A program made the position numbers and the translations under genes. A DNA stretch of 63,216 nt, filler included, from Asterionella formosa (lineage: Eukaryota), in the NCBI GenBank assembly GCA_002256025.1. It is 19 parts of 19 records of this genome, joined end to end, with 100 filler letters (N's around TTAATTAATTAA, not from the genome) between each part and the next. Parts side by side here need not be neighbours in the genome. Positions count along the whole stretch, not along the records: positions 21,584 to 22,828 come from NKIB01003446.1; positions 22,929 to 24,173 come from NKIB01003447.1; positions 24,274 to 25,517 come from NKIB01003448.1; positions 25,618 to 26,861 come from NKIB01003449.1; positions 26,962 to 28,205 come from NKIB01003450.1; positions 28,306 to 29,549 come from NKIB01003451.1; positions 29,650 to 30,893 come from NKIB01003452.1; positions 30,994 to 32,237 come from NKIB01003453.1; 11 more parts are not named here. One strand, 5' to 3'. Below the pieces are notes generated by a model. That model did not search any database, was not told the DNA's origin, and saw only the letters and a list, made by a program, of their open reading frames with translations. This document shows positions 22,083 to 60,533 of this stretch, piece by piece (within the stretch, counting starts at the first letter, position 1; each line of letters starts with the position of its first letter).

Positions 22083-22657
22083 AAGTCAAAGCGCTGCCCC
22101 CCCCCCCACCCATTACTGTGCGTTGCAACGGCCCGCAACAGGGTGGCTGTGGTTATGGAGCAGGGGGTAGAACGCCACAACATGACGAAGTCCCAAGGAT
22201 CATGAATGGGAAGAAAACTTTGCTGCATTCTGGTGGTACCATTGGACTTGGGAAACAGCGAGGAAGGTTGTATCCCGCCGTATCAAACGGTTTCGAATAA
22301 GAGGAGTTGGAACGAAGAGATGTGACAAGAACTGCCCTGACACTTCTGTCCGACTTGGTCGATGGATGTCTCCCGCCTATTTGTGACTTCCTACGCAACA
22401 CAACAAAACTTGCCAAAACGACGAATCAAACGGGTTTCGAATATGAGGAGTGGTTGGAACGAAGAGACTTGTCATAAACATGACACTTCTGTCCGACTCA
22501 GTCGATGGAGCAAAAGAAACGACACCAGCGTCCGGTTATTTGCAAATGGCTGTACTTGATTAAAAACAAATAACCATTTTGTTAGTAACTATTTATGAGT
22601 AAATACAAATTCTTACTTCCATCTTTCCCCATAGGAATCAAGCAAAAACGAAACTAG

Positions 22658-22828
22658 TCCTGACGAGGAATACTGTATCGTCGATCCGGAAAGTGGGGAA
22701 CTCATTCGTCTCACAGTAGCCGAAAAGGAGCGTATCTTTCTGGACGCGCTTCAGTCCTACGATGCCACTGGAAGGCAAATGCTCAAGGATGACGAGTTTG
22801 ACCTATTGAAAGAAGATTTGCAATGGAA
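22658..22828 (+). pseudogene. PGRL1: PGRL1 gene fragment inside a repeat
   Basis: Translates PDEEYCIVDPESGELIRLTVAEKERIFLDALQSYDATGRQMLKDDEFDLLKEDLQW, matching the PGRL1 YC..E.E..FL.ALQS.Y..G...EFD.LKE.L.W region. Confidence 0.8.
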
Positions 22829-22928
22829 NNNNNNNNNNNNNNNNNNNNNNNNNNNNNNNNNNNNNNNNNNNNTTAATTAATTAANNNNNNNNNNNNNNNN
22901 NNNNNNNNNNNNNNNNNNNNNNNNNNNN

Positions 22929-23090
22929 CTTCTTCCTGCAAGTTAGTCTCAAAGAATCGTCTTGACTTGGCGTCGTAAGCGATTTCTCTCGTTCCGCTCG
23001 TAATGGTGATCTTTTCGTCGCTTCCTTCTTCGGCCATTAAAAGTGGACCAGCAACGGCCACACGACCAGCTGTTGTCGTTGTCTTCCTTA
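22929..23090 (-). pseudogene. PGRL1: PGRL1 N-terminal fragment (transit-peptide end and mature start)
   Basis: Near-identical to 59512-59670 and 28780-28884, where it runs into the PGRL1 motif. Confidence 0.72.
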
Positions 23091-23254
23091 AAGTTCGATG
23101 ATCTTAAATTCATTTACCGGTACTGTCCCGCTGTAGTAGCAGCAGTCATAGACATATGTATATGGTGTTCTATTTATACAATCCTAAAACTATGATGACT
23201 TACTATGGTGTTCTATTGCTTGCTTATTACTCCGACTACCGGTACCGCTTTTCA

Positions 23255-23613
23255 GTTTCACGATCATACAATCCTAAAGCTATGATGATTTGCTGTCCCA
23301 CTGTAATTGCAACAAACATGAACATATGGTGTTCTATTTGTTTTTAGTTTTACGATTATACAATCCTAAAACTATGATGATTTACTGTCCCACTGTAATT
23401 GCAACAGTCATGAACATATGGTGTTCTATTTGTTTTTAGTTTTATGATCATACGATCCTAAAACTATGATGAATTACTGTCCCAATATAATTGCAACAGT
23501 CATGAACATATGGTGTTCTTTTGGTTTTTAGTTTTATGATCATACGATCCTAAAATTATGATGATTTACTATCCCACTGCAGTAGCAACAGTCCTGAACA
23601 TATGGTGTTCTGT
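23255..23613. repeat. 92-bp minisatellite, ~4 copies
   Basis: TATGATGA recurs at 23281, 23373, 23465, 23557; reverse-complement copies at 21770-21875 and 59292-59450. Confidence 0.92.
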
Positions 23614-25517
23614 TGCTAGTTTACTACTCCGACTACCCCAAGTATATCACTTACTACCTGCTACTGGTACTGTGTATATATATATATGATATATTGTTAT
23701 TGTCATATGATGTGCTGGTACACATGAAGAGCTCCCGACCAAAATAGGGGCTTAAAGAATTTGCTACCAAAACCCTGGCGGCTATTTAACGGTCTAAATA
23801 ATTAGTTTCAACGGACGTAGAAAATATCGATGCAAACAAATTTCAGAAACAATTCCGGTACACGTAGTCATGGAAAACAATGGACTTATAGTGCATTGAG
23901 TATTTTCGAATTATGTATATGCGAGTATGATCATCTCAACCATATCAGATGTTCCATATCGAGAGCGCCTTTGAATTTTATAAATGTATAACACTTAATA
24001 TATATATATATTTACAAATTTTATTTCTACATCCATGGCATATATTTTTTTGAAATCGTTCTGTCATGTTAACAAACAATGCCTGCTGCTTCATGAAAAG
24101 ATACGTCGTAGTAAAGCACATTAAAAGAAAAGAAAATTTTCGCAATACATAACGAAAAACATTGTGACTTCGANNNNNNNNNNNNNNNNNNNNNNNNNNN
24201 NNNNNNNNNNNNNNNNNTTAATTAATTAANNNNNNNNNNNNNNNNNNNNNNNNNNNNNNNNNNNNNNNNNNNNCTAATCTCACTACCGCCAGTATATCAC
24301 TTCCTACCTGCTGCTGGTACTCTGTATACTATATATGATAAAATGTTATTGGCATATGATGTACAGGTACACATGAAGAACTCCCGCCCAAAAAAGGGGC
24401 GTAAACAATTTGCTACGAAAATCCTTGCCTATGAAATATATACAAATGGGTTATGATATACACCAATTGAATGGTCTAAATAATTAGTTCCAATGGACGT
24501 AGAAAATATTGAAGCAAACAAATTTCAGAAACAGTACCGGTACACGAAGTCGTGGAAAACAATGGACAAATCATGCATTGAATATTTTCGAATTATTTAT
24601 ATGCGAATATGATCGTCTCGACAATACCAGACGTTCCATATTGAGAGTGCCTTTGATTTTCATAAATGTACGACACTTGTTGTTATATTTATTTATTTCC
24701 AAGTTTTATAGCTATATACGTTGCAAATATATTTGAAATCGTGCGTTCTGTTCTGTTAACAAAATATGCCTGCTTCATGAAAAGAAATATTGTAATAAAG
24801 CACATGACAAGAAAAAAAGGAAAGTTAACGCAATAACAAAAAACATTGTGGCTTCGACACATTGCGCCTTCGAAGAATGGAGTATGTTTAAGGTAATGAA
24901 GCCATCAATGTGGTACTTGGATGTTAAGCGTTGGGAGGCAGGACAACAACAACTTGTAAACTAAACGCACATTTCCTGTTTTCTCAGTTGAATCAACAGC
25001 TCGTTTCGCTTATTGGGGACCACCAATGTAAAACAAAACAAAATTGCTAAGTGCTCTTGTCATTGGACCTATTCACTTCTGATGGAACATAACTGACGGA
25101 AACGCAACTTCACCTCCTCTCAAAGTTAAGCTAACGAAAATGAATCGGTAAGTTTTATTCGGCAACATTGGAAACCTGAAACTTACTTATTCAAGAATTT
25201 ACTGACATTTTACTATTACAGACTTATGCATCGCTCACTTGCTTTGATTTGGCTGTGGTAAGTGAAGCGATCAAGAGGATACAATGGAATGGCGTGATCT
25301 TTGTCAGTGTAACATGTCTAGCTAACAAGTCGTTCCTTCTCATTGTTACTGTAACTGCATAGAACAATAAAACCGATCAAACGGAATAGCCGGCGAGTTC
25401 AGAATGACACTAACAGCAGGGAGAGAGACGCAACTTTAGTAAGGCATTGCTTGGCACAAGATTCAGAATAGAGGAAGAAAAGGGCGCGACAGGAGTATTC
25501 ATTGAGACAAGTGGAGA
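23614..25517. repeat. Body of a multi-copy interspersed repeat family (spans two contigs)
   Basis: 23620-24173 ~ 24290-24860 ~ 28885-29350 ~ reverse complement of 21584-21770; 24985-25517 ~ reverse complement of 26330-26861. Confidence 0.85.
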
Positions 25518-25617
25518 NNNNNNNNNNNNNNNNNNNNNNNNNNNNNNNNNNNNNNNNNNNNTTAATTAATTAANNNNNNNNNNNNNNNNNNNNNNNNNNN
25601 NNNNNNNNNNNNNNNNN

Positions 25618-28205
25618 ATAAACAAATTTGGGAAGAGAACCTTGTTAATAATGGGTTGTATGAACAATTACAAGATAGATCAACTAAATTCACAATAAGG
25701 TGGAATTAGAACAGAACAAGGTTTTAGTACACTGAGCTTGTCTAGAAAGGCAGGCAGTAGTACTAGCATTGCAGTCAGACTGCAGAAGAATTGAACACAC
25801 TTGCAAGCGGATCAAATGCCTGATGGTGCTGAACTTTCTCTTAAAGCTCATGCGGCCATTACGTCTGCAAATAAAAAGGATCATGCACATAGGATCAAGG
25901 TTATCGTACGCTAAGTGGCACAGGATTTTCGTATATATGATAATTTTTGGATCAAAAATATTATCAAGGTATCTTGTAACTATGATGATTTATTAATATT
26001 TTACCGACCTTGAAGTATAATGATAATAAGAACATTATCATCACACAATGTATATAAACTGATCAACAACATTTCCCATCAATATCATAAACCTTCTCAT
26101 TTTATTTTCACTTCTCGTGATCGCCCGATGTAAATTATAACTACAACATATCCTAAAACCAGCGCAACTCTATGCTATCATGTGAATTGTTTCATCGTAA
26201 ATCTATCGTAAACATGATCATAATTCTAATCACAAGCATTGTTCAAAATAGATTGAAATGGATCGTAATTTAACTATCAAATTAAGCAATGCTATCTAAT
26301 AATCTACATGCCAGCGACCCAACGTTTCTCTCTCTACTCGGCTCAATGTATATTGTTCCTGTCTGGCCCTTTTCTTCCTCTTTTCTGAATCTTGTGCCAA
26401 GCAATGCCTTACTAATGTTGTGTCTCTCTCCCTGCTGTTAGTGTCATTGTGAAATCGCCGGCTATTCCGTTTGATCGGTTTTATTTTCCTATGCATGCAG
26501 TTACAGTAACAATGAGAAGGAATGATTTGTTAGCTAGTCATGTTACATTGACACAAGAACACGCAATTCCATCGTATCCTCTTGCTTCACTTACCACAAA
26601 TCAATGCAACTGAGGATGCATAAGTCTGTAATAGTAACTTGTCAGCAAATTCTTGAACAAGTAAGTTTCGGGTATCCAATGTTGTCGAATAAAACTTACT
26701 GGTTCATTTTTGTCATCTTAACTTTGAGAGAAGGTAAACGTTTTGTTAGTTTTGTTCCAACAGAAGTGAATAGGTCCAACGAGCGACAAGAGCACTTACG
26801 CAATTTGGTTTTGTTTTACATTGGTGCTCCCCAACAAGCGAAACGAGCTGTTGAATCAACTNNNNNNNNNNNNNNNNNNNNNNNNNNNNNNNNNNNNNNN
26901 NNNNNTTAATTAATTAANNNNNNNNNNNNNNNNNNNNNNNNNNNNNNNNNNNNNNNNNNNNATAAACAAATTTGGGAAGAGAACCTTGTTAATAATGGGT
27001 TGTATGAACAATTACAAGATAGATCAACTAAATTCACAATAAGGTGGAATTAGAACAGAACAAGGTTTTAGTACACTGAGCTTGTCTAAAAAGGCAGGCA
27101 GTAGTACTAGCATTGCAGTCAGACTGCAGAAGAATTGAACACACTTGCAGGCGGATCAAATGCCTGATGGTGCTGAACTTTCTCCCAAAGCTCACGTGGC
27201 CATTACGTCTGCAAATAAAAAGTATCATGCACATATGATCAAGGTTATCGTACGCTAAGTGGCACAGGATTTTCGTATATATGATAATTTTTGGATCAAA
27301 AATATGATCAAGGTATCTTGTAACTATGATGATTTATTAATATTTTACCGACCTTGAAGTATAATGATAATAAGAACATTATCATCTCACAATGTATATA
27401 AACTGATCAACAACATTTCCCATCAATATCATAAACCTTCTCATTTTATTTTCACTTCTCGTGATCGCCCGATGTAAATTATAACTACAACATATCCTAA
27501 AACCAGCGCAACTCTATGCTATCATGTGAATTGTTTCATCGTAAATCTATCGTAAACATGATCATAATTCTAATCAAAAGCATTGTTCAAAATAGATTGA
27601 AATGGATCGTAATTTAACTATCAAATTAAGCAATGCTATCTAATAATCTACATGCCAGCGACCCAACGTTTCTCTCTCTACTCGGCTCAATGTATATTGT
27701 TCCTGTCCTTCCCTTTTCTTCCTCTTTTCTTAATCTTGTGCCAAGCAATGCCTTACTAATGTTGTGTCTCTCTCCCTGCTGTTAGTGTCATTGTGAAATC
27801 GCCGGCTATTCCGTTTGATCGGTTTTATTTTCCTATGCATGCAGTTACAGTAACAATGAGAAGGAATGATTTGTTAGCTAGTCATGTTACATTGACACAA
27901 GAACACGCAATTCCATCGTATCCTCTTGCTTCACTTACCACAAATCAATGCAACTGAGGATGCATAAGTCTGTAATAGTAACTTGTCAGCAAATTCTTGA
28001 ACAAGTAAGTTTCGGGTATCCAATGTTGTCGAATAAAACTTACTGGTTCATTTTTGTCATCTTAACTTTGAGAGAAGGTAAACGTTTTGTTAGTTTTGTT
28101 CCAACAGAAGTGAATAGGTCCAACGAGCGACAAGAGCACTTACGCAATTTGGTTTTGTTTTACATTGGTGCTCCCCAACAAGCGAAACGAGCTGTTGAAT
28201 CAACT
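25618..28205. repeat. Two near-identical 1244-bp contigs (25618-26861, 26962-28205) of the same repeat family
   Basis: Same length and ends, differ only by scattered substitutions. Confidence 0.95.
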
Positions 28206-28574
28206 NNNNNNNNNNNNNNNNNNNNNNNNNNNNNNNNNNNNNNNNNNNNTTAATTAATTAANNNNNNNNNNNNNNNNNNNNNNNNNNNNNNNNNNNNNNN
28301 NNNNNAGTAGTGTTCGGAGAAATATGATGCAGTTTGAAGGAGAAATGGAAGAGATCTAACCGTAACACATATACCTAGCTGTTAGTAAATGATAACTAAT
28401 TTCGTATCTATGAAACAATGCATTTGCAGAGGCTGTTATTTCTATATATCTCCAACGTCTGCGCGTCCTGCCAATATCTACTCATTACCTCAATCGTTTC
28501 GACTGGTGGCATCGAGTAAAACATTTGCGAGAACGAATGGATCGATGGGATATTGATCACAAACAGGAAGAAAC

Positions 28575-28884
28575 ATTCATGACAACCATGTCAGATCCGT
28601 TCCATTGCAAATCTTCCTTCAATAGGTCAAACTCGTCATCCTTGAGCTTGCCTTCCAGTGGCATAGTAGGACTGAAGCGCGTCCAGAAAGATACGCTCCT
28701 TTTCGGCTACTGTGAGACGAATGAGTTCCCCACTTTCCGGATCGACGACACAGTATTCCTCGTCAGGAATGCATTCTTCTTCCTGCAAGTTAGTCTCAAA
28801 GAATCGTCCAGACTTGGCGTCGTAAGCATTTTCTCTCGTTCCGCTCGTAATGGTGATCTTTTCGTCGCTTCCTTCTTCGGCCAT
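28575..28884 (-). pseudogene. PGRL1: PGRL1 fragment with a 2-bp frameshift
   Basis: MAEEG..CIPDEEYC..FLDALQSYYATGRQ, then AGGCAAGCTC instead of AGGCAAATGCTC, continuing LKDDEFDLLKEDLQWNGSDMVVMN in another frame. Confidence 0.8.
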
Positions 28885-30993
28885 ATGATGTACCGGTACA
28901 CATGAAGAGCTCCCGACCAAAAAAGGGGCTTAAACAATTTGCTACGAAAACACTGGCGGCTATTTAACGGTCTAAATAATTAGTTTCAATGGACGTAGAA
29001 AATATCGATGCAAACAAATTTCAGAAACAATTCCGGTACACGTAGTCGTGGAAAACAATGGACATATAGTGCATTGAGTATTTTCGAATTATGTATATGC
29101 GAGTATGATCATCTCAACCATATCAGATGTTCCATATCGAGAGCGCGTTTGAATTTTATAAATGTATAACACTTTATATATATATATATTTACAAATTTT
29201 ATTTCTATATGCATGGCATATATATTTTTGAAATCGTTCTGTCATGTTAACAAACAATGCCTGCTGCTTCATGAAAAGATACGTCGTAGTAAAGCACATT
29301 AAAAGAAAAGAAAATTTTCGCAATACATAACGAAAAACATTGTGACTTCGACACATTGCGCATTCGAAGGATGAAGAATGTTTAAGGTATTGAAGCCATC
29401 AATGTGGTAGCTACTTGGATGACAATCGTTGGGAGACAGGCAGCACAACAACAAATTGTTAACTAAACGCAGCCACATTTCCTTTTTTCTCAGTTGATTA
29501 AACAGCTCGTTTCGCTTGTTGGGGAGCACCAATGTAAAACGAAACCAAANNNNNNNNNNNNNNNNNNNNNNNNNNNNNNNNNNNNNNNNNNNNTTAATTA
29601 ATTAANNNNNNNNNNNNNNNNNNNNNNNNNNNNNNNNNNNNNNNNNNNNAAATGATTTATTTCAAGCAATGGAACTTCCATTGCTTGAAATAATTGACTC
29701 TGTTCAGAAAAGGTCTCATTCTGGACTTATTCAGTTTCCAATCCAATTTTTTTCTTCCAAATGAAAATCAAAAGTTTAATAAACTTCAAATGATTTGTTT
29801 TTATCTTATTCCTTCCTTGTTTTATGCCTACTGTACATATTTTCTAAATCCCTGGTACTATAATAAGTGCAAAACAGCATAAACTTGTTGTTGAACCTCC
29901 ATAATAAGATAAACCTCCCTAAAGGATTCAAAAAGGTCATACTTACAGGAGCAAACAGGGTGTGCCTTGTTTATAGGGAGATTACACTGTCAATGAAACC
30001 TGCTGACATCATCAATACCTCACCCTTCTATTTCATCACTACTTTTACATTTCACATCATGATCAGGTTCGAGATTCATACATACACATACATGCATGTA
30101 ATGAAGCAACGATTGGCTGAAGCAGAAATATTTCGAAATTTATCTTTGATAGACATATATATATATATATATATATATGGATAGTACGGTAGAATATGAG
30201 AACTCCAGTTATATTCTCTGCTGACATCATCGATAGTACGTCATTCCTCATCTCTGACGTCTATAGGTTCTCTATTTAACAGATACTAGAGTCTACCTGT
30301 ATACTGTATACAACGATTGAAGTGACATACCGGTAGTCGACTAGTGACTTCATCAATTCAAGACGATGTATATCCTATATTTCTTGGACACTTTGTACGA
30401 CTGTTATACTAAACAGGTGAGTTTTTCTTGACAAAAATAAGGACAGTATGGTGGGACCAGAATTTACCTACTACCTGGTACCAGTACCGTAGCTTTGTCC
30501 TTTGGGCGGGTCGGGGCCAGGGCAATGAATAATATTGTACCTTTCTTAACACAAACTTCCTTGCTTTCGTATATTTGGTGTGCTTACGTGGCAGCAGTTA
30601 AGTAAACTGGTGGTTGCATGCTTGCTGACATCATCCTTCTATTTTCACATCATTTGTCCAATTCTCCTCAGGTACCAGCGACCAGTACCTGGTACCAGGT
30701 CCTGTTTAAGAGATTCCTACCTGGTATAACTTGTACGACGAACAAGTGACGCAGAACCTTATCATGATTAATTCTACTACCTGGTACCAGGTACCGTACC
30801 GGTGGATATACCGGTACGTAATTTCAAACATGAGAACACGCTGACAGCATCCATACGTCACCCTTCTGTTTTCAATTCACTACCTTGTAACATNNNNNNN
30901 NNNNNNNNNNNNNNNNNNNNNNNNNNNNNNNNNNNNNTTAATTAATTAANNNNNNNNNNNNNNNNNNNNNNNNNNNNNNNNNNNNNNNNNNNN

Positions 30994-31965
30994 TTGGAGA
31001 ATTGTTGGGATGTCTGGTTGCATAAGGCAATGATGAAAGGTCATGAAGATGATACTACTCCTGCACCAAAATACGTTTATACCGGTTCTGGAGGACAGGG
31101 AAAGAGATATGGGGACTGGGACGCAAAGGGATATGCCAGGTTCAACAGCCTGTATGACATAGTTGTTCATCAAAGGACAACTGCCATGAGCAGGCAGTTG
31201 GAGATCAGCTTTAAGTCGAATCTTCTTGCTTATTTTGGCTGGATTTCCACAAGGTAAGTCACTTTGGGGAATTGAACAAAGTGGAATTGCTGAACTGATG
31301 TTCATGGAAAATATTTACTAACTGATGGAAATTTTCATTGAAGTTACGCCAGGGAACAACAGTATGCCTGCCATTAGAGTTCGTAATGATCTAGTGGCCA
31401 TTTCTCTTCCAGTAACCACAACTCCGGCATCTTCCATCAGTGGATTGACTCCACAAGTTAATTCAGCAAGAACTTCAACGATAACAACTGGTAGTACTAA
31501 GAGTGCAAAGAGTTCAAAGAGTTTGAACGTGATTATTCACTTTCCCCCAGACCAAGTCAAGGATGCCGCAGATTGGTACTTCCAAGAGATGAAGAAAAAG
31601 GTGTATGTGGAGCTTCGGATGAAGAAAAAGAGTGAAATTTATAAGGCTTGTATTGATCAGAACATTGCACCCCTAGAACGTTTTGGAGGTGAAATTAAAG
31701 AAGGATGATGAATGATGAGAGCAGCATTAAAAAGTTCGAGGATGTTGCAGCAAAGGGCGAGAGGAAATACAAAGTGGCTAAGAAGAAGATCTACGCAAAG
31801 TTGCACAGGGACTTTTACAGGTTCAAGAAAAGCAAAATAAACGAAGAATCAGTGGAGACGACAGATGAAAGAATCAAGGTGGCAAATGAAACTAGGAGTG
31901 CAAATGAGTATTTCAAACGGTCAATGAAAGATGTTGCAAGACAATTGAACTTCACTCCAATTTAG
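30994..31965 (+). other. Fragmented ORFs of unknown function, probably repeat- or transposon-associated
   Basis: Three consecutive + strand ORFs on a short AT-rich contig; no catalytic motif recognised. Confidence 0.3.
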
Positions 31966-32529
31966 TGAAAATGAATTTCAATTTTGACGAATTGACCATT
32001 GTCAAAGGGAAAATGAAGTAGGAACCAAAATTATTAATAATATTACTGATTTACTAATTCAATCGTTGACAGCTACTCATTCTTTGCTTGATTTTGACTT
32101 ACTAGCTACTAGTTTGGCGACATGCATTGAATGTTATAATATGCAACAGCTGTTTCTAAACATATTTACGAATTCAATCGTTGACAGCTGCTCCTCCTCT
32201 GCTTTTTTTCTATATTGTACTTGTTAGAGCGAGTTACNNNNNNNNNNNNNNNNNNNNNNNNNNNNNNNNNNNNNNNNNNNNTTAATTAATTAANNNNNNN
32301 NNNNNNNNNNNNNNNNNNNNNNNNNNNNNNNNNNNNNTAGTCTTTGATCAAAGGAATCACAGGAACCCTTGAATACATTGCCATGTTTGTTGTCTTCTAA
32401 TTCGACTCTTTTTGAATTCAAAGTGAAGTATCTAACTAGAAGTAGTAGTATTTGTTGAATATATGAGCTTATTAATTAATCCTTATGTATAACTCATTTC
32501 CTGAACTGACATCAAAGTATAGAATGGGT

Positions 32530-32620
32530 GTTAGTCGAGTTCTCTCATTATTGAATTCCGATATATTTGACATAACCCCAACTCTATATATATCTGTATC
32601 GATGTGCAGGATTGCTCACC
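32530..32620. repeat. Dispersed ~90-bp repeat, second copy at ~60695-60788
   Basis: GTTAGTCGAGTTCTCTCATTATTGA...GCTCACC in both contigs. Confidence 0.8.
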
Positions 32621-32804
32621 ACCTACCACCTCGTCCATATACCGTAAACCACAAAAAGCTTTGATTTATTTTGGTACTGCCAGGGAACCTGGAATCTGGA
32701 CAATATCAGGGGGTTGCGGTACAAGACTCACGGGTTTGACTATAAAGAGAACTGAGCTAAATTGCTCTCTTCCGGCAACTTGGAGAAATAAGAATAGGGT
32801 ATGA

Positions 32805-49909: not shown

Positions 49910-50448
49910 GGAAGGGTGATCTTGGCCCGTCACATTTCTTTTGCTCTTGTCCGACCTGGCGTAAGGAGGTTATTAGCAACGTGCATAAATGGCGCACATA
50001 AATAAAAAGACTAGGGTAGAACCGATAGTTCTATTGTTTTACATTACAATTATAGACTGAAGCACGACTAAAGGGGGTTTCGACTGCTTTTGGAGTACAG
50101 GCATGCAAGCCCATAGGAAATGTTCAACAGCCTTGTCGGGAAACACCAAATACCGTTGCAACAATTTTCAGTGGGAAGTAGAAGGAGGATTGGAATCGGG
50201 ACACAGTTCAATTGCTTCGTCATGAAGGAGATATTTAAATGCTTTTGTCTACCGGTACTTCTGAAAGAGTAATAAAGCTGATACACAGGTAAAATGCGGG
50301 GAAACAGGAAACAACGACGACTGAAACACTATCATACCGGTATCATTGAGTATTCACCTGATTTGTAATTGCTAGATTCTGAGATAAATCATCTTGTCTA
50401 GTTTTGCTTCATTATTATTCATATTTATAGCTCGACAATACTTAGCAC

Positions 50449-51121
50449 TTACAATGGATTCGAGGTATCCTTCTCTCTGTTGGGGCTTTGCTGCATAATA
50501 ATTTCATATTTGAGATCTTGGTACCTGAAGGAAGATTGGTCAGAAAAAGAGTTGACAGGGACCAGATTATGAGAGTTCACACAGTCTGCAAGTAGACCAA
50601 TGCTAAGGTACTTACGCAATCTCAACATTGGTCGGCCAGAACCCTGCTGCTTTCTTGCGTCGGATGGTCTTGAAGAGATCTTCCTTCTTAATTCCTGTTG
50701 GTAGTCCTCCTGTCCGGTAGACATAATCCGTCAATTCTTTCAAATCTTGAATCAGCTCCTCTTCTGTTTGACTAACAGTAGAAAGTCGATCAATAACGAC
50801 ATTGAATCTCTCCCTGATGGCACGTTGTTGATTCCTAAACTCTGCAGCTTTGGCTTCATTGGCCTTGAATTCTTCGGTTGGTTCTGTCAAGTAGGCAGGT
50901 CTAGGTTCAGCATGAGCTGCTACATGTGGTAGCAGCATTGAAAAGCCAAGTAAAGAAACCGATGCTTGGCTCCACCAATCACGGCGAGATGTTTCCGCAA
51001 GTGCCGTTGTTGTTGTTCTTGCTGTGCACTGCGGAGCTCTTGGAGGAGCAAATGCAACCACGGCATGCGACATGAGGGACGCAAGAGCGACGACAACAGT
51101 GCCGCTGGAAGTGAGCTTCAT
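50449..51121 (-). CDS. Putative thylakoid-lumen protein, 2 exons (51121-50616, 50524-50449)
   Basis: Signal peptide plus VAFAP, twin-arginine SRRDW, hydrophobic stretch, AHA cleavage site; GTAAG..CAG intron in frame. Confidence 0.8.
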
Positions 51122-51900
51122 GATGATGCTGAGTGTAGTAACTATATACGCGATATGTATAGAATGTTGTATGTTATATGTGGTGCGACGACAGTATACC
51201 GATGGAGTTGATGATGCTCCTTCCATTTGCAAATGAGAATCAAGGATGTCAGCCACCGATTATTGCTAGTGTGCGCTTATTGACCACGCACGAGATCTTT
51301 TCTACATACATAAACAATAGTAAAAGATGATGAATTGATGGGTGATTTCAGCTGCCAGTGCCGGTATGTAGTCGTTGGAAGAAATGCGTGTCGACGGAAA
51401 ACCAACGGTGCTTGTAGCAAGTACGGTGCCAGTGCTCCGGTAAATAAATTTCTCAGCATTTATGGCAAGCATAGTGCGTAGAGTACCCGGTACCTGGTAC
51501 CAGGTACGTAAAGTTCTGCCAACTTGTTGAAGCTGATGTTATATGTATATTTCCTACTCAAATGGTTTATATTTACCGGGAGTTATTTATACCAAGTCTG
51601 GACTTGAGTCCAAAGTCTGACGCCACCAAGTCAGACTTGATGACAAATAACCACGGTTATTATAGTAGAGCAGTATTAATAACCTGGTTATTATATACCA
51701 AGTCAGAAACACTTTACACTATTATCCAGTGATGAACATCAGTATTGAACAGATTGTCGCTCACCATGATTATAGTCTTACCGGTGATACTACAGTACTG
51801 GCACCGGTATGGTAAATCCAATATTGTAGTAATTCTATCTTCCATTAAAATCACAAAACCATCATCCCAATCCATTCCTCCTGCTCCGAAGTCGTCATCA

Positions 51901-51945
51901 TCGTGATCGTGCTCATGCTCATGCTCATGCTCATGCTCATGCTCG
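51901..51945. repeat. (GCTCAT)n hexamer microsatellite
   Basis: About 6 GCTCAT units preceded by TCGTGA variants. Confidence 0.9.
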
Positions 51946-54039
51946 AGGCATAAATTCACGCCTTGTATCATTTGTCATTGTGGATTCTTTTTAGCAGGAG
52001 TGCGATGAGCCTTGGCTTTGCAGAACTTTTTCAAAAGCGACTGCTGTGAGAGCCACACCTCCTCGTCGTTGCGTTGTTGCTACGCAACCACGTCGTCTTC
52101 ATGTTATCCTTTGTTGTATCTTTTTGAGTGCACATTCAAATACAAATGCAAGGAACGTCGGCCTTTTTTGCACTTTGCTACAGATGCTCCACAAGTTTGC
52201 AAACATGAACCTTTCCGTTGCAGGCGATGACACAAAGGTTTTCAGGCCTGTCAATCGATGAAAATTGGTTGATAATTATGACATACAAAGCGGTTTTGTG
52301 ACTGCTCATCATCGCATGGCGGCTGCTCTGAATCCTAGAAGGACAGAGGAGGACATGATATCCTTTCATCATGATGCATGCAAAATGGTACTATTTTGAA
52401 TCTCTGGCCCAAATTAAACCTGAAACCGGGTTCAACATTGTATTGACACACTGCACAGCTGAATTTTCTTCNNNNNNNNNNNNNNNNNNNNNNNNNNNNN
52501 NNNNNNNNNNNNNNNTTAATTAATTAANNNNNNNNNNNNNNNNNNNNNNNNNNNNNNNNNNNNNNNNNNNNTCAGTTCTCTATGACTGTACTTCTCATGT
52601 CAGCCAGAGAATTGGATGGTGAATGTGGATTGGGTTAAAGATTTCCATTTTGGCCCCAGTCACATCTGGTGATTCAAGTTGAAGTCTACAAAACAATTGG
52701 TGATTCCAGGGCTTCCAACTCATGTTTTCGTCTTTCTTCTCTTTGTCTTCATTATCTTTGTTATCACAAAAATTATTGCTTTGAGCAGCACATTCGCTCA
52801 GCTTTGGCATAATTTCTTCATCAGTGACTTTTTTTATTTCTGTCTTCTTTGTAATTCTTGATAATTTTTAGCATATCGCCATTCTTGTATTCTTCTTGCT
52901 TCATGCACTGTAATTGCGCTCACTGCAGTAAAAAAGGGGTTTAACTTCTTTATTTCTTTTCTCTTGTTGCTGTCTTTACATGGTTCTCCTTCTGTTTGTG
53001 TTGGGTTGATACCATTGCCAAGAATTCCCCAATCTGTGTGTAGTGTTGTGTAAAACGCCGAATCAATATCCATGTAAGTGAGGTTTTCACTGCTCCTGCG
53101 TTAAACTTTGTTCGCTTTTCCATCTCCTCCTCCTCTTTTTGGATCCTCTTTCTGTCGGATTTCATTACTATCTTACTATGGTTTCATCCAACATGTATGA
53201 TTTGTTCTTTCTTTGCTTCATTGGCCGCTTGGATAGCGCCTTTCGTCAAGGTTGAATCGGTCGTTTCTAGGAATTATTAACTATCTGGAGCCAGTGATCC
53301 TTGTATCTTGTGCTGTACCACTAAATTCTGTGATCAGCACTGTAGTACTGTGGTAGTCTTTCGTAAACTCGCCTTTATACTTGGCAAAAAAGTGTGTCTT
53401 CTCGACGATATTATATTATATGGCTAATTCTTCTTCACGAAATAGGCAGGGTTGGGATTATTGATGCAAGCTGCATCATTCCCAGTGACTTTCAAAGCAG
53501 TAAAAGATTTCTCACAACTCTTGAGACTGGTACTACCAAAGGATGCACGAAAGCGTCTATGATCGGTCGGTTCACAAGTGTTTCGAGCTTGCCGCTCATC
53601 TAAGCAAGAAAGATGAAGACCCATGAAAAGAAATTCAGGAGAAGATAGATGAAATACTACCATTGTAATGGCAACAGAAAGAAAAAAGTTAGTATGATTT
53701 ATAGCCCATTTGTACTCCCCTATTTCTAGGTAAGTATTTCATTGTGCTACCTGCCGACAAGACCTGTGCTTCCCTAGTTTTGTTAGCATAGTAAGTGGCT
53801 GATGAGTCCCCAACCNNNNNNNNNNNNNNNNNNNNNNNNNNNNNNNNNNNNNNNNNNNNTTAATTAATTAANNNNNNNNNNNNNNNNNNNNNNNNNNNNN
53901 NNNNNNNNNNNNNNNTCTATTTCCGTTTAGACATTCCTCAGACTACCTAGTCTTCGGACACCTGTCGACATCAACAGCCTAACAGACACACTCTGACACC
54001 CTCCCCTGTTGATGCTCGACATACCACATCATCCTAATG

Positions 54040-54421
54040 TGTTGTCAAGAATATAGCATCAATGGCTATAATGAGTCACAAGGACTGTGGACTCGACTAT
54101 AGTCCAATGAGTCAAATGGTGCGTTCCCATGTCAAGAAGCTTGCTAACGAGATTGATGTCTTAGATCAATCAGAAGAAGGTTTACATCAACGAAAAGGGA
54201 ACACAAAGAACAGGTTCTCGAAGTGTGATGAATGGGATTGAAACTTAGTTTTAGTTTAATCTTATAATTAAGAAACAGTGAGAATTGACAGAGTAAGGTC
54301 AATAGCGAAAACTAGCACGAAGGCTAGCAGCAGAAAGAAGATAACAATACTAGTGGTATAGCAGGTAAGTTCTACGTAAGAGGAACCCGTCAGACGGGAA
54401 GGAGTACGAGACCTTTCAACA
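54040..54421 (+). mobile_element. Putative 5' LTR of a Copia element
   Basis: TGTTG...TTCAACA termini, TATA-like TTATAATT near 54262, ends 44 bp before the gag ATG. Confidence 0.65.
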
Positions 54422-54465
54422 CGCTTTAAAGCGTTCACTTTAAGGCCACAGGCTACTCAGGAACC

Positions 54466-55158
54466 ATGGGAAGTGACGAAGACACGTCAGTGAGGTTGCC
54501 GACATTCGATGGGCAAGATGCTAAATGGCACATGTGGAAAGCGAAGTTTCTCGCATACGCGTGCTACAAGAACTTTCAAGGAATACTTAACGGTGACGAA
54601 CTACCAAGAGGAGAGAAAGACCTAAAGGGCGATACGATCGTGTTGTCGGATGCTGACGAGAGACGCATCCGAAGGAGCAACACAGTTGCTTACGCAAGTC
54701 TGATAATGGCATGCCAGAGTGGGCCATTTGGACACGTAAATAATGCAAGAAGTGCCGAGTTTCCTACCGGCAATGCTAAAGAAGCATGGGACAAGCTCAT
54801 TTCTACGTATGAGTCAGGCAACATGGCGAATGTCATTGCCTTGTCCCACCAATGGACGAAGTGCACTCTAGGGGAAAACGAGAACCCCGACAGCTGGTAT
54901 GTGGAGTTGGATCGAATCCGGGAACGATTGGGCAATACGAGCTCCGCCGTTTCGGATGGTGCCTATGTGGCACACATGATCAACAACCTACCTGAAAGCT
55001 ACAAGAGTTTGGTAGTAGGAAGGTTCGGCCTGGCGCGCAACACGCTAACGGTCGAAGAGATTAAGACAGACATCCGGGACTACTACGATCTATATGTCCG
55101 GGATGACGTCAAAACGACTAACAAGAACAAGAGTGAACAGGCCTTCTACACGAAAGGG
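54466..55158 (+). mobile_element. Copia gag (UBN2-type), cut by contig end
   Basis: LPTFDG..W.MWK.KFLAYA, GNA..AW..L, ENPD.W, INNLP.SY; uninterrupted frame. Confidence 0.85.
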
Positions 55159-55435
55159 NNNNNNNNNNNNNNNNNNNNNNNNNNNNNNNNNNNNNNNNNN
55201 NNTTAATTAATTAANNNNNNNNNNNNNNNNNNNNNNNNNNNNNNNNNNNNNNNNNNNNAAGTCCGTATGGACGAGGTCGCCGATACATACCGGGTAGTGT
55301 CTAGCTTAAATAAGTCATATAAAGACATGGATGTATTTTATATAATTTGAGTAGACAACTCGGTGACACGATACCTGTGTATTACGAACGTACCCGAAAA
55401 TAAATCAACTCTCAGCGCAACCTTTTATGGCCATA

Positions 55436-55712
55436 CATATAGTCGTAGCTGTGTCCTGCACTGGTAGTTAACTAGCCCCTTCGACAAAGCTCGCGATGTA
55501 CATATACCGGTACTTGAGTACAGGGTAGACTGGGTACCAGGTACCAGTACATATAGTCGTAGCTTTGTTGTGCACCGGCACCTTCGACAAAAAAGCTATG
55601 TAGCGATGTACCGGTACTCGTTTAGACTGGGTACCAGGTACCTGGTACATAAAGTCGTCGCTATGTAGTGCAGTGGTAGTTAACTAGCACCTTCGACAAA
55701 GCTCAGTATATA
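55436..55712. repeat. Degenerate ~100-115-bp tandem repeat, ~2.6 copies
   Basis: CATATAGTCGTAGCT...CCTTCGACAAA...TAGACTGGGTACCAGGTACC recurs. Confidence 0.75.
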
Positions 55713-56909
55713 TACTGCCTTGTATAGAGTGGGTAATACCATCACCTCTAATAGCTTTGTCATGAAATGAAAGCCCTTGTTGTACCTCCCCAGTTTTCTA
55801 GTAATATGCATGTTAACATGCAAACCATGAAACTACTAGGAGATAAAATAGTTAATAACAATTGAGGTACTAAACAAGCAAAGTAAATACTAAAGACATT
55901 GCAAATTTCAAAATTTCAATGAAATTATCTAAACACACAGTAGTGAATGCCCACCAGTGCAACAATCTTTTATCAGATGCATGAGTATGTATGTCACTGT
56001 TTGGTCTTGGCCATATGGCTCATAAATTCGGTCTAGCTATTGCTGTGTTTGCAGGAGTAGTATCACCAGCACAAACTAGCATTGCAACTGTCTCCCACAG
56101 AATTTAGCACCAGCAGTAAATAAATTTCAGTCTACTCCTTTCAACCCTTGTAAATAGCCTTTCTGGCTTTTGCCCTCCAATCCCAACCTCCCATTCCTGT
56201 CAAAGAACAACTAGCATCTTTGGTGTCTTAGCCACTACTATTGTACTAGACTGGATCAACAGCCATTTTACTTTCCAAATCGTTTTACTTTGGGTTAAAG
56301 TACTGAAAGACTATTTAGGTTTAAGCAAATGATGGAATCTAATTTAATCAAGACAACGTTAAGCAATATTTTTCTTAAACTTTGTAGACAAGCATGCACA
56401 GTCCTTAATTCATATGTAGATGACTGCATGTGTCACTACAGAAGGAAAGAGATTTACCAGCATTAGTCTACTGGTACTATGTTAACAATATGCTGGTAAT
56501 AACAGNNNNNNNNNNNNNNNNNNNNNNNNNNNNNNNNNNNNNNNNNNNNTTAATTAATTAANNNNNNNNNNNNNNNNNNNNNNNNNNNNNNNNNNNNNNN
56601 NNNNNCCAAAAAGAAATAACGAATATTTCCACTCCACCATGATAATCAGGACGCACCCGCGAATGCGAATTATATAAATATATAACATGCATAACATAAT
56701 GTGTAACATTTTACATGACAATCACTCTGGTAAGTACAAAAACAGTGCCCTTCTACATATTCATATCAAAAACAAACAACCAGTACTTACATATTCATTC
56801 CCATACCAGTTTCCATCTGTAGGATTAGTCATACTGCGTACTACAGTTACATGTCCAGCCCTAGAGGGCTGGATGCTCTATAGGGATGACGCCTAGAGGC
56901 GTCTTCCCT

Positions 56910-57848
56910 TTACCCTAACCCTAACCCTAGCCCTAACCCTAACCCTAAGAAAAAGGTTGGTGATATATGAGCGTACAGAACCTTTTTTTTACCTGTCACC
57001 ATGTCTGAGGAAAGATCCTCACAAGCTCTAATCATACAGTTTAGTTTTCCAAAAAGTTCTAGATAGAACTCACTGTATTTCTTACAAGAAAGGATTGCCT
57101 TTTGTTCCTCCTGATCGTCAGAATCCTGGCTTGTTTTTTCAAGTAATATTTTCAATATTTCCTGATGCTTGGTTGTGAGTTGAAAACTAGATGCTTGATT
57201 TGACTTCTTGTCTTCAAAAGATTCAATGAGAATCTTAATACGTTCATTGTCTTCTTGTGTCTTTGCGATTAGCTTGACCAGATCTTCATGTACAATGCGC
57301 TCATTGTCTCCTTTTGTATTGGTGCCTTCCTGTAGCTGATTAATTAAAAACCTATCTTTGACAATGGGATTAGTTGGATTGTTACTGCTTGGCATTGGAG
57401 TGGTTGGGGAAGAAGGATGTGCTGCATTTGTTGTTGTTGTTGTTGTTGTTGATGATGTTGGCTGAGTTGTGTTGGCTGCTGTTGGTTTGCGGTTCTTGTT
57501 TCCATCAACCACTTTTTGAATATCATCTAGTAAATTATTATCAATTGAATTATTATCGAGATCAAGTGTAGTCAAGACAGTATTGACCCTGAGAACCTCT
57601 GCAATGGCCCTGGCTCCGTTAACACCAATTTTATTACTTCCGAGAACAAGTGTAGTCAAGACAGTATTGTCCTTGAGAGCCTCTGCCATGGCCTTGGCTC
57701 CATCAACACCAATTTTATTACTTTTGAGATAAAGTGTAGTCAAGACAGTATTGACCTTGAGAGCCTCTGCAATGGCCTTGGCTCCGTCATCACCAATTGA
57801 GTTGCGATAGAGAGAAAGTGTAGTCAAGACAGTATTGACCTTGAGTGC
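56910..57848 (-). CDS. Partial RNI-type leucine-rich-repeat protein, 5' end beyond the contig
   Basis: 28-aa (84-bp) repeats L..N.IG..GAKAIAEALKVNTVLTTL, Thr-rich linker, coiled-coil-like region; 3' end runs into a telomere-like repeat, so the true end is uncertain. Confidence 0.8.
   Translation of the reverse strand, partial: ALKVNTVLTTLSLYRNSIGDDGAKAIAEALKVNTVLTTLYLKSNKIGVDGAKAMAEALKDNTVLTTLVLGSNKIGVNGARAIAEVLRVNTVLTTLDLDNNSIDNNLLDDIQKVVDGNKNRKPTAANTTQPTSSTTTTTTTNAAHPSSPTTPMPSSNNPTNPIVKDRFLINQLQEGTNTKGDNERIVHEDLVKLIAKTQEDNERIKILIESFEDKKSNQASSFQLTTKHQEILKILLEKTSQDSDDQEEQKAILSCKKYSEFYLELFGKLNCMIRACEDLSSDMVTGKKKVLYAHISPTFFLGLGLGLGLGLG
56913..56948. repeat. Interstitial telomere-like repeat (CCCTAA)6
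   Basis: Six units, one of them CCCTAG. Confidence 0.92.
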
Positions 57849-57948
57849 NNNNNNNNNNNNNNNNNNNNNNNNNNNNNNNNNNNNNNNNNNNNTTAATTAA
57901 TTAANNNNNNNNNNNNNNNNNNNNNNNNNNNNNNNNNNNNNNNNNNNN

Positions 57949-59191
57949 ACCTGGGTTACACATTCCTCTCTCTGGCGAAAGCCAGCCTGGGCTCGGCTAA
58001 ACAGCCCTCGAGATTCCGCTTCCACATTTATCCTGGTACCAAGGATCACACACCCCACCTTGAGGACAGTGGCCATGAGCGAAATCCCCCGATAGTTGTT
58101 CATATCAGCCAAGTCCCCTTTCTTAGGTATTGAGACGACCAGTGACTCAGCCCACGACTGGGCCACCAGTCCCCTCTCATACGCAAAGTTGAGTAGGGTT
58201 CCTAGTGAGTCCGTCATTGGAGTGGATGGTGGCGGGGTGGGCTCCTCTTCCCGATAGTTTTGAAGGTGGGAAAGTAGGGCCCGTTCCTCCGCCAAACATG
58301 CCTGTAGCAGTTCAGTGGGTATCCCGTCACCGCCCGGAGCACGATGGCTCTTCATCTTCCTTAGGGCAGTCCAAATATCGTAGGTTGTGAAGGGTTCGTC
58401 CAGCGAACGGATCCCCTCATTTGCCTGTGGGTGCGGGTCAAATTTCTCCCAATATTGGGCCTCCTGGCTATGACCGGTTTCATCTGCTGCTAGAGAGGCA
58501 TAGTGCGCTCCCCAGGCCTGATGAATATCAGTCAAAGCTGTCAGCAGGCGTCCGTCCGGGCCAAGGACCGGTTGGACACCTGCGATGCTGCTCTTCTGGC
58601 GCCATCCTGCAGTCGCTGAGGCCCACCGCCAATAGTGGCGAGGTTTCTCGCGCATATTGACGTGAGCCTCCCTAATTGCCTTATACCATGCCCGCCTACC
58701 CGAGAGGCGGATCACCTTCCGCGCCCTCTCTTTGGCAGCCTTGTACATGTCCCCAAGCCGTGCTACATCTTCACGGTCTCCTCGCGACTCCGCCCTCCGG
58801 GTTTCCCGGAAAATCCTCCTTCGGGTCTCAATCGCCCGACGTACCTGTCCTGTCACTCTTGGTGGGTTTTGTCCCGCCACCCGTTGGTGGAGGTTCAGGT
58901 CCTCTGCCACCTGGTGACATGTTGTAGTGAACTTCTTGGCCATACCATCCAACCTTTCCTGGTGGTAACTGGTGGGGTTTTCGAGTGAATGTGAACACTC
59001 GATTACATCCTCCAGGTCCTCCTCCAGCGAGTCAGCTAGTGGCTGCCAATAGTTACTACTAGCCACGGTTACTTTGAGTTCCTTCTCCTCCATCACAATC
59101 CGCCGGTACAGTGATTCCGGCCGTGGTGGGGCAATCCCCATCTCTGGGATTCTGGTAAGCCCAGGTAGGTCCGCAACAACTGGGAAGTGGT
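57949..59191 (-). mobile_element. Non-LTR retrotransposon (LINE) ORF fragment, start of the RT domain
   Basis: RAPGGDGIPTE, W..S.VVSIPKKGD...NYRGISL, QAGFR. Confidence 0.9.
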
Positions 59192-59511
59192 NNNNNNNNN
59201 NNNNNNNNNNNNNNNNNNNNNNNNNNNNNNNNNNNTTAATTAATTAANNNNNNNNNNNNNNNNNNNNNNNNNNNNNNNNNNNNNNNNNNNNTGATTGTTG
59301 CAATTACAGTGGGACAGTAAATCATCATAGTTTTAGGATTGTATGATCGTGAAACTGAAAAGCGGTACCGGTAGTCGGAGTAATAAGCAAGCAATAGAAC
59401 ACCATAGTAAGTCATCATAGTTTTAGGATTGTATAAATAGAACACCATATGTCTATGACTGCTGCTACTACAGCGGGACAGTACCGGTAAATGAATTTAA
59501 GATCATCGAAC

Positions 59512-59766
59512 TTTAAGGAAGACAACGACAACAGCTGGTCGTGTTGCTGGTCCACTTTTAATGGCCGAAGAAGGAAGCGACGAAAAGATCACTATTACGA
59601 GCGGAACGAGAGAAATCGCTTACGACGCCAAGTCAAGACGATTCTTTGAGACAAACTTGCAGGAAGAAGAATGCATTCCTGACGAGGAATACTGTGTCGT
59701 CGATCCGGAAAGTGGGGAACTCATTCGTCTCACAGTAGCCGAAAAGGAGCGTATCTTTCTGGACGC
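59512..59766 (+). pseudogene. PGRL1: PGRL1 fragment truncated at FLDA by a junction
   Basis: MAEEG...CIPDEEYCVVD...EKERIFLDA, then switches to the sequence seen at 22483. Confidence 0.8.
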
Positions 59767-59895
59767 ACACTTCTGTCCGACTCGGTCGATGGAGCAAAAG
59801 AAACGACACCAGCGTCCGGTTATTTGCAAATGGCTGTACTTGATTAAAAACAAATAACCATTTTGTTAGTAACTATTTATGAGTAAAAAAATTTC

Positions 59896-60533
59896 TTACT
59901 TCCATCTTTCCCCATAGGAATCAAGCAAAAACGAAACTAGTGATGGAGGGATACGCTCTGTACCATTTGCTTTTGTGTTAATGGCATTTCCGAATCTTTT
60001 GCAAATAGCAACTGAGTTTTGCTCTGGAGTGGAACCAAGCGACAAATACATGTGAAGTCTCAATGCACCATTGCTTAGGTGATTATCCATAGCAACTGCA
60101 TGAACTGTATCACCTCGCATTAAGAAGATGTACTTGAAGGGAATGCGAAGAAGCATCGCATGTTGGTTTACATGTTCCATGGCATGTTGCTTGAATTCCG
60201 CTTTACCTGTACCTTTTCGATCTAAAATGAGGTTAGACTCAAATGACTCGCCATCCCAGACATTTATAGAGAAACCACCAGCACCTAGGGACATATCCAA
60301 TCCCCAAGGAAGGCACTTTTCGAAGTCATTGACTACCAGTTCTGCCTGCTGATAGTCAAAATGTGGCTCCTGAGGAACATTTGAGTGATTTACAGCAGTG
60401 TGCAACAATGTACAGGTGTGAGGCATAGTCTTCCTGACATAAGTTGCGTCACTTACAAGTGATTGCAGCACAGAACCGGAAATGACCATAGACAAAGTTT
60501 TCCAAAACATGTCGATATTGTTGGAAAGTAATG
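59896..60533 (-). CDS. Partial 2OG-Fe(II) oxygenase-like (PhyH/cupin-type) protein
   Basis: QEPHFDY (HxD), LMRGDTVHA (distal His), ALRLHMY (Arg); 5' end beyond the contig. Confidence 0.55.

Follow-up and report, generated by a model that had tools for sequence, protein, structure and literature searches.

PGRL1-like sequence amplified among Plavaka-type transposons of the diatom Asterionella formosa

Transposon and PGRL1-like sequences in the window

The window, a stretch of 63,216 nucleotides from the diatom Asterionella formosa (assembly GCA_002256025.1), comprises 19 contigs with N-spacers between them. It holds four pieces of a PGRL1-like coding sequence, 94–97% alike among themselves, which lie beside arms and interiors of two transposon families, A and B (Table 1). 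A sequence-only reading had divided the gene into P1-P2-P3 and a second, oxygenase-like locus into X0-X1-X2; P2 does measure 90 bp and X1 some 175 bp, and both junctions between the two lie where it had put them. The pieces that it delimited are real, but PGRL1 homology starts at 59534 instead of 59512 and ends at about 23069 instead of 23090, the extra bases being transposon sequence. The PGRL1 observation lies far outside what chance would give and is much larger in extent than at first sight.

Table 1. Features of the window, with positions along the whole stretch
Feature	Position	Strand	Basis
Family-A right end (TIR at 18561); contig without PGRL1, outside the span of the sequence-only reading	18561..20138	-	84% to C7471 7077-8897
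Family-A left arm and one unit of the ~92-bp tandem array	21584..21879	+	96% to two-ended family-A copy C7471, positions 1543-1823
Family-B interior X0+X1 (X1 = 22483-22657)	21880..22657	+	91-95% to family-B reference 3607-4346
PGRL1 cDNA P2-P3; X1|P2 junction at 22658 (1-nt overlap, a shared T); exon-exon joint 22754|22755	22658..22828	+	96% to spliced native gene
PGRL1 cDNA 5' part, with 6-bp duplication, after capture junction	22929..23069	-	
Family-A left arm, tandem array ~23121-23615	23070..24173	-	
Family-A left arm; contig without PGRL1	24274..25517	-	83% to C7471 467-1698
Family-A left terminus (TIR CGTCTGCAAATAAAAA at 25862) and arm	25862..26861	+	sharp boundary, unrelated flanks in aligned copies
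Second copy of the 25862..26861 left terminus, same flank, 98.8% identical; allele or assembly duplicate	27206..28205	+	
Family-B interior 'P4', not PGRL1, following P3 at the common P3|P4 junction	28306..28575	-	98% to B 1208-1478
PGRL1 cDNA P1-P2-P3; exon-exon joint 28672|28671	28576..28884	-	96% to spliced native gene
Family-A arm joined to PGRL1 internal ATG by deletion, 3-nt overlap (ATG)	28885..29549	-	
Family-A arm up to 5' capture point (A2007, 1-nt overlap G)	59292..59533	+	
PGRL1 cDNA, 5' end through P2; P2|X1 junction 59766/59767 (0-nt overlap, singleton)	59534..59766	+	
Family-B interior X1-X2	59767..60533	+	96% to B 4164-4925; X1 then X2 in family-B copies examined
3' part of family-B 2OG-Fe(II) oxygenase-like ORF (HxD...H motifs)	59896..60531	-	

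Families A and B are both Plavaka-type terminal inverted repeat (TIR) transposons, with ends CGTCT..AGACG and CATCT..AGATG, respectively, TIRs of 13–22 bp and 2-bp target-site duplications (TSDs). Their TIR motifs have 632 exact matches for A (16-mers, genome G000) and 538 for B, against 0 for controls. The TSD is present in six of ten two-ended copies (4/7 A, 2/3 B; binomial P 1e-5) and absent from the other four. The Plavaka transposase domain PF18759 was detected in family B (E 1.3e-10, 41.4 bits against a cut-off of 26.3), and the C(2)C and H(3-4)H motifs defined in PMC12730594 can be made out by eye when the family-B ORFs of contigs C6077 and C12103 are translated. The two short transposase fragments of family A itself have no Pfam match, and contig C1251 of this family contains a frameshifted homologue 65–70% identical to a PF18759-positive ORF. 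Among the 12 + 6 Plavaka loci examined, we found no intact autonomous family-A element or transposase; the only related one among them, C12973, shows no A terminus in the part examined. Nor did the loci examined for junctions include an empty A deletion derivative that had lost its interior and lacked PGRL1.

Pack-MULEs have Mutator-type long TIRs and a TSD of about 9 bp, and Helitrons have TC...CTRR ends with neither TIR nor TSD. The element found here is neither: the ends and TSDs are of the Plavaka type, with TIRs too short and TSDs of the wrong length for a Pack-MULE, and their very presence speaks against a Helitron.

On alignment, the "oxygenase locus" X0-X1-X2 corresponds to the ordinary colinear interior of Plavaka family B. 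This family carries a 2OG-Fe(II) oxygenase-like gene, as had been suspected for the second locus: a consensus built from 31 sequences shows HxD...H motifs, and the Atlas score to "2OG-Fe(II) oxygenase family protein" is 0.94. The best Foldseek matches of its structural model (pLDDT 56) are such oxygenases and cupins, at E 0.003–0.01 and none at E <= 0.001. The 461-aa ORF matches no Pfam family at E 0.1, TET/JBP included, and TET/JBP proteins are absent from the fold matches listed. In none of the other Plavaka subfamilies represented by the loci examined was this ORF found.

The native PGRL1 gene and its spliced copy

The native PGRL1 is a single gene with one 85-nt intron, which occurs once in a search of the whole genome; a second record of the gene (P0002) has the intron too. 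RNA origin is marked by this one intron only. Three genomic loci of other diatoms have a GT intron at the same codon, and six predicted proteins continue into an intron there, so that its position can be taken as ancestral and conserved in other diatoms.

The native protein has 330 residues, with cysteines at 280, 283, 308 and 311; in Arabidopsis PGRL1 the cysteine spacing is 3-25-3. These paired C-terminal cysteines are accompanied by a plastid presequence and hydrophobic segments (judged by eye), a feature set that includes the transmembrane and cysteine features given for PGRL1 in PMC8294387. The PGRL1-like identity first proposed for the pieces agrees with the automatic Atlas name of the 79%-identical protein P0003, "putative PGR5-like protein" (score 0.98, 238/256 features). 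The name PGRL1 does not appear among the best 120 of 563 sequence matches, which are unnamed algal proteins; Pfam and PDB searches returned no match for the protein and nothing useful for the window's PGRL1 and X2 pieces.

In 44 of 44 distinct joint contexts the intron is precisely missing and exon 1 runs into exon 2, which indicates that the amplified sequence is a spliced, mRNA-derived copy of the native gene. The founder cargo comprises 944 nt of spliced PGRL1, from the end of the transit peptide to 62 nt past the stop codon, and thus nearly the whole coding sequence without signal peptide or poly(A); neither promoter nor signal-peptide sequence nor distal 3' DNA came with it. Both its splicing and its near-complete coding sequence had escaped the sequence-only reading. 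The cargo replaces the family-A interior, of which 4.4 kb is missing relative to C7471, or 6.3 kb, including the transposase region, relative to C1251. Family A abuts PGRL1 directly at both ends, with zero foreign bases. The copies thus show the precise intron loss of LINE-type retrocopies but not their poly(A) and flanking TSD in an intact target, the 3' end joining the transposon directly, and they do not retain the intron that capture from genomic DNA, as in Pack-TIRs and Pack-MULEs, would have kept. An LTR-mediated retrocopy was rejected, both flanks of the cargo being family-A DNA transposon.

Amplification, junctions and origin of the cargo

PGRL1 pieces lie on at least 193 contigs besides the native one (four match lists; contigs, not loci), in accordance with the high amplification suspected at the outset. 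These contigs are A/B mosaics and deletion derivatives. Five run from an A TIR into PGRL1, each with a different flank, and others from PGRL1 to a right TIR; none of the contigs examined shows PGRL1 within a copy that has two TIRs and a TSD, the ten two-ended copies being without PGRL1.

The junction X1|P2 defines a subfamily: 51 places carry it, as do 5 of the 25 metagenome loci, and a contig of run X14 bridges it. A run X4 contig, with 29 letters to the left of the junction where 31 were needed, was not counted as bridging, nor was run X1, which may be the window's own source, counted as independent. P2|X1, in contrast, occurs in one place in the assembly and in none of the 25 metagenome loci, and is not among the 15 joints, of 30, that are listed for four public runs. 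The breakpoints of the two are 90 and 175 bp apart, and the earlier reading of the junctions as reciprocal is not supported; P2|X1 is best read as a late one-off deletion. P3|P4 also occurs in metagenome loci L219 and L237, the latter reading X1|P2-P3|P4. Independent metagenome contigs show not only X1|P2 and P3|P4 again but also the junction at the 5' capture point and the splice joint, the last of these being present in DNA runs X14 and X4 as well. At least ten other junctions exist in the family. Upstream of X0-X1|P2 lies the left arm of A or B, not X2. The A-PGRL1 cargo has, as these mosaics indicate, passed in pieces into the second family, B. Junction overlaps of 0–3 nt are at chance level and therefore no proof of template switching; the mosaics and many junctions nevertheless fit the second option of the sequence-only reading, template-switching products of a gene-capturing element.

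The account that we consider reasonably probable is that PGRL1 cDNA was copied into a broken A element during repair, followed by transposition and template switching. A break inside an A element, at an excision gap or a fragile site, would have been filled via 1–2-nt overlaps with PGRL1 cDNA that the reverse transcriptase of a retroelement had made, or with the mRNA itself. The non-autonomous product may then have transposed in trans, and switching of template between A-PGRL1 and B copies would later have given P3|P4 and X1|P2, the latter by a back-jump within a P3|P4-type element and recombination with other subfamilies. Both forms would have been amplified by B or A ends, P2|X1 being added late as a single deletion.

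A two-step origin, in which a retroelement made an ordinary PGRL1 retropseudogene elsewhere and a Plavaka element later copied its middle by DNA gap filling, with the remaining steps unchanged, is possible but rather doubtful. Copying of an internal part would leave cDNA ends without poly(A) or TSD, as seen; bat Helitrons are described as capturing pre-existing retrogenes (PMC4224331), and Pack-TIR gap filling as DNA-templated (PMC8277862). Yet at every PGRL1-bearing locus mapped, the piece borders on A or B sequence or on the end of the contig, and 12 of the 18 near-fixed coding differences between founder and native gene are synonymous, which argues that the template had not long decayed as a pseudogene. 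Very unlikely is a genomic template from an intron-less PGRL1 allele (an intron presence/absence polymorphism), with no reverse transcription tied to capture: about 20 near-fixed sites do distinguish the founder from the native allele of the assembly, and some of its amino-acid states are shared with the full-length protein P0036, but the ancestral intron position, the intron in P0002 and the restriction of the capture to coding and proximal 3' sequence speak against it.

Because P2 and X1 are shared between the two contigs, it had been suggested that a unit bounded by X1 entered the PGRL1 fragment and duplicated 90 bp, so that the contigs would represent its ends or the reciprocal products of one event or circle. 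This is scarcely credible, given 51 places against one, the colinearity of X0-X1-X2 with family B, the arm found upstream in place of X2 and the many further junctions; reciprocal products would have breakpoints in common, and a circle was rejected on the same grounds. That the whole family is an assembly or amplification artefact is implausible, even in a fragmented assembly of a high-copy repeat, since junctions recur in independent metagenome contigs and DNA runs and the contigs that run from a TIR into PGRL1 differ in their flanks. An artefact is possible, if less likely than not, for the singleton P2|X1 alone, with its one occurrence.

Related elements and fate of the copies

Gene capture by TIR transposons is usually viewed as DNA-templated, and a TIR transposon spreading an mRNA-derived gene copy is unusual, a variant on known gene capture. 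Pack-TIRs, Pack-MULEs and Pack-CACTA likewise have host sequence replacing part of a TIR element, short breakpoint overlaps and later multicopy transposition, but are captures at the DNA level, whereas the diatom cargo is spliced and far more amplified; this main animal survey of TIR gene capture filtered out intronless copies (PMC8277862). Bat Helitrons also spread mRNA-derived gene copies by a DNA transposon, but are rolling-circle elements, and four of the cases there are insertions of the LINE-1 kind, with poly(A) and TSD, in an element that is itself intact (PMC4224331); in the TIR element of the diatom there is neither poly(A) nor TSD and the interior is replaced. LTR-mediated retroposition likewise lets a retrocopy truncated at both ends replace internal ORFs and be amplified as a non-autonomous copy, but involves an LTR retrotransposon with its own reverse transcriptase and a median microsimilarity of 6 bp (PMC5131818), against a DNA transposon, 1–2-nt overlaps and no reverse transcriptase found here.

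The described Plavaka elements of the CMCT clade, PlavakaA and PlavakaB, share the PF18759 transposase, short TIRs and 2-bp TSD with the diatom families (PMC12730594). The 5'-CATCA..TGATG-3' ends of PlavakaB resemble those of family B in four of five letters, and neither these nor the 5'-TGT..ACA-3' ends of PlavakaA match family A (CGT..ACG), the latter being absent also from B (CAT..ATG); the diatom host and the host retrocopy are further differences. TET+ Plavaka in the same account have an oxygenase cargo too; the diatom oxygenase has no match to TET/JBP in Pfam. Red-algal Plavaka, with accessory genes PAG1-3, likewise have a putative 2OG-dependent oxygenase among them, and the pairing in family B is therefore not new in kind; unlike for the diatom elements, the available text describes no host-gene capture there (bioRxiv 10.1101/2025.02.11.637652).

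A spliced, near-complete coding sequence has thus been amplified to about 100 or more copies by one TIR family and handed to a second, providing a natural test case for cDNA-templated break repair and for the formation of mosaics between Plavaka families. In diatoms, small RNAs have been mapped to transposons that are methylated and to some genes (PMC4247016), so that the present system lends itself to a direct test of silencing of a photosynthesis gene, essential and single-copy, by its captured copies. We consider improbable the combined reading that the hundred-odd, probably methylated copies arose by direct host-mRNA capture, through RNA- or cDNA-templated repair of the transposon's own break with no retropseudogene step, that some keep an open frame for presequence-less PGRL1 behind the element's leader, and that their small RNAs or transcripts tune native PGRL1 and hence cyclic electron flow. 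All 30 bins are covered in RNA run X15, which, consisting of contigs, is silent on transcription and strand. The JGI proteins P0001, P0027 and P0038 combine transposon-type N-termini with native-type C-termini; they may be co-assembly chimeras and did not enter as evidence of expression.

Among the 66 loci aligned for substitution analysis, against 193 PGRL1-matching contigs, copy-specific substitutions include 58 synonymous changes against 53 +/- 6 expected under neutrality, and no selection was found (P = 0.2). CpG positions account for 49 of 106 transitions while making up 86 of 879 positions. The copies look neutral, drifting with an excess of CpG changes and no sign of function, and are probably methylated passengers.

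Spliced PGRL1 copies inside family A

The four PGRL1 pieces that the sequence-only reading described in the window (19 contigs separated by N-spacers) are present, and the P2/X1 and X1/P2 junctions (slashes mark junctions) lie where it placed them; the edges of the pieces shift, with homology beginning at 59534 and stopping near 23069. Searching the genome (15,436 contigs, 68.4 Mb) with one piece as DNA query gave 270 candidates, and all 40 that were scored are 96–100% identical. The union of four match lists holds 194 PGRL1-matching contigs, or 193 without that of the native gene, a figure that is a lower bound for contigs and overestimates loci because the assembly contains near-identical duplicates. 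Window contigs 25618–26861 and 26962–28205 are 98.8% alike and share one flank. The name PGRL1 is putative, resting on the automatic Atlas label of a 79%-identical relative and on a cysteine pattern, whose spacing we take to be that of PGRL1. Named relatives of the protein are diatom proteins, and no named plant match stands among the best 120 of 563 sequence matches.

Sequence comparisons revealed that the captured cargo is spliced. The native intron (85 nt, GT-AG, phase 0) directly follows the DALQ codons and occurs once genome-wide; the repeat loci examined run straight into exon 2 in 44 of 44 distinct joint contexts. The exon joint is spanned by 57 of 66 aligned loci, and the remaining nine stop at most 20 nt from it. 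Over 83 alignments, the copies and the native gene share a median identity of 96.2%.

Upstream modules end sharply at CGTCTG(C/T)AAATAAAAA, beyond which flanks are unrelated between copies, and the same motif closes the opposite end of this Plavaka-type element, family A (632 exact matches in the genome, none in the control). The family is defined by two-ended copies on contigs C7471 (8.9 kb) and C1251 (10 kb), the latter carrying a frameshifted homologue 65–70% identical to the genome's best PF18759 match. PGRL1 cDNA meets A at reference position 2007 (1-nt overlap) and returns to it at 6438 (2-nt overlap). The stretch that it displaces amounts to 4.4 kb in elements of the C7471 type and 6.3 kb in those of the C1251 type, where it takes in the transposase region. 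Five contigs with five different flanks lead from the left terminal inverted repeat (TIR) into PGRL1, and further contigs lead from PGRL1 to a right TIR; no contig examined holds a PGRL1 copy with both ends. Family-A termini often lie 50–1500 bp apart (loci L132, L137, L144, L145, L156 and L209), which suggests nested or local insertion. The family-A ORF of locus L202 has, by eye, a cysteine-protease-like motif, presumably Ulp1-like, and no Pfam match at E 0.5.

Family B and the junction lineage

The supposed oxygenase-like locus does contain an oxygenase-like ORF, but modules P4, X0, X1 and X2, in that order, form the interior of a second Plavaka-type transposon, family B (about 10 kb in a composite of two contigs). 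Its ends are CATCTAAGCCGCG (538 exact 19-mer matches, none in the control), and its Plavaka transposase scores 41.4 bits against a cut-off of 26.3; other Plavaka transposases of the genome are 56–63% identical to it. The second ORF has HxD...H motifs, with 2OG-Fe(II) oxygenases as closest matches; its predicted structure has a pLDDT of 56 and a weak best fold match (E 0.003). Target duplications (TSDs) of 2 bp flank four of seven two-ended A copies and two of three two-ended B copies (combined P about 1e-5). Another type of terminus, the third, occurs at window 61317, L191 and L170; it reads CATCTAAGACG... and is related to family B.

The PGRL1-bearing loci examined were mapped onto A, B and the PGRL1 mRNA. 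The founder form is A/PGRL1(full)/A, shorter forms rejoin A at 7042, 7109, 7119, 7730 or 8067, and the major form is PGRL1/B1208 (that is, P3/P4); X1/P2 forms continue into several different right parts. This A/PGRL1/B anatomy is shown, and the observation as such is real. In the PGRL1 mosaics L094 and L095, L107, L112, L105 and L033, ends of family B lie outside sequence of family A, and right parts of B are fused to right parts of A (A8447/B9098, A8518/B9659), which suggests cross-family hybrids that transposed. L003 and L008 have an extra back-jump junction, from B1324 to A1977, yielding tandem PGRL1 pieces.

Origin of the copies

Probably, a break inside an A element was filled from PGRL1 cDNA or mRNA, and the product would then have transposed in trans, its copies being reshuffled with B via template switching. 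We infer the repair step, where the reverse transcriptase (RT) came from and which transposase mobilised the product; LTR retroelements could have supplied the RT. Overlaps at the five junctions measured are 0–3 nt. The main rival, a retropseudogene step before capture, is possible but less likely. The longest copies (944 nt), which extend from native position 6000 (transit-peptide end) to 4972 (62 nt beyond the stop), carry no poly(A). An intron-less PGRL1 allele as template appears quite improbable. The intron is old, because GT stands at the same codon in three of 25 metagenome loci, all from distant diatoms, and six predicted proteins read into the intron at that point. Near-fixed coding changes between copies and native gene, read from the alignment, are mostly synonymous (12 of 18), and the template was therefore a functional allele.

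A 90-bp duplication, one of two options in the sequence-only reading, is scarcely credible. The 90-bp P2 and 175-bp X1 common to both junctions are the segments between four unrelated breakpoints. X1/P2 has 51 matches, recurs in five of 25 metagenome loci and is bridged by a contig of public run X14, with 34 and 37 letters on either side. P2/X1 matches once, in the window's own contig, and is absent from the 25 metagenome loci and the joints listed for public runs; its simplest explanation is a deletion within a P3/P4 element, or else an assembly chimera. A back-jump within a P3/P4 element would give the order X1/P2-P3/P4, which one of those five metagenome loci shows. An artefact is very improbable as an account of the whole; the splice joint is bridged in DNA runs X14 and X4, and the 5' capture junction occurs in one further metagenome locus of the 25.

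Later substitutions in the copies are neutral (58 of 193 synonymous, against 53 ± 6 expected, P 0.2) and created four new stops. CpG sites account for 49 of 106 transitions and 86 of 879 positions, a load consistent with methylation. In two long copies, which lack the plastid signal, the frame is still open over 296 and 304 aa, upstream of the internal Met through to the stop, because the copies are young.

Fungal Plavaka elements have TSDs of 2–3 bp and ends TGT..ACA or CATCA..TGATG (PMC12730594); family B is near the latter, whereas family A fits neither. Pairing of Plavaka with an oxygenase has been described in red algae (bioRxiv 10.1101/2025.02.11.637652) and also in fungi. The PGRL1 system works like a multicopy Pack-TIR, but its cargo is intronless, a class removed from the Pack-TIR survey (PMC8277862). 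Its interior-replaced structure resembles LTR-mediated retrocopies (PMC5131818), and bat Helitrons amplify retrogenes, called the first such case in any DNA transposon (PMC4224331). Listings of open-licence literature showed no diatom case in which a TIR transposon amplifies a spliced host gene, which is weak evidence of absence. Small-RNA action of the copies on native PGRL1 would be plausible in a diatom (PMC4247016).

Other features of the window

Coordinates of the native gene, transposon features and other window features
Feature	Location	Strand	Remarks
Native PGRL1 gene	G000:C12690 6111-5034	minus	330 aa, one intron
Family-A right end, TIR at 18561	window 18561-20138		runs off end of 20-kb contig
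Family-A ORF	L202:3313-3927
Copia-type gag ORF fragment	window 54430-55158		PF14223, E 1e-12
Leucine-rich-repeat ORF	window 56913-57848		84-bp tandem units
Contig with 413-aa open frame	window 57951-59189		56% GC
150-bp repeat common to two contigs	window 32469-32620, 60634-60787		82% identical

The 413-aa frame has no Pfam match. Window 1–20138 and 32338–52471 are ordinary contigs with many genes, which encode WD40, methyltransferase, PAXNEB/Elp4, AAA ATPase, PAP-fibrillin, Kelch and GNAT proteins.
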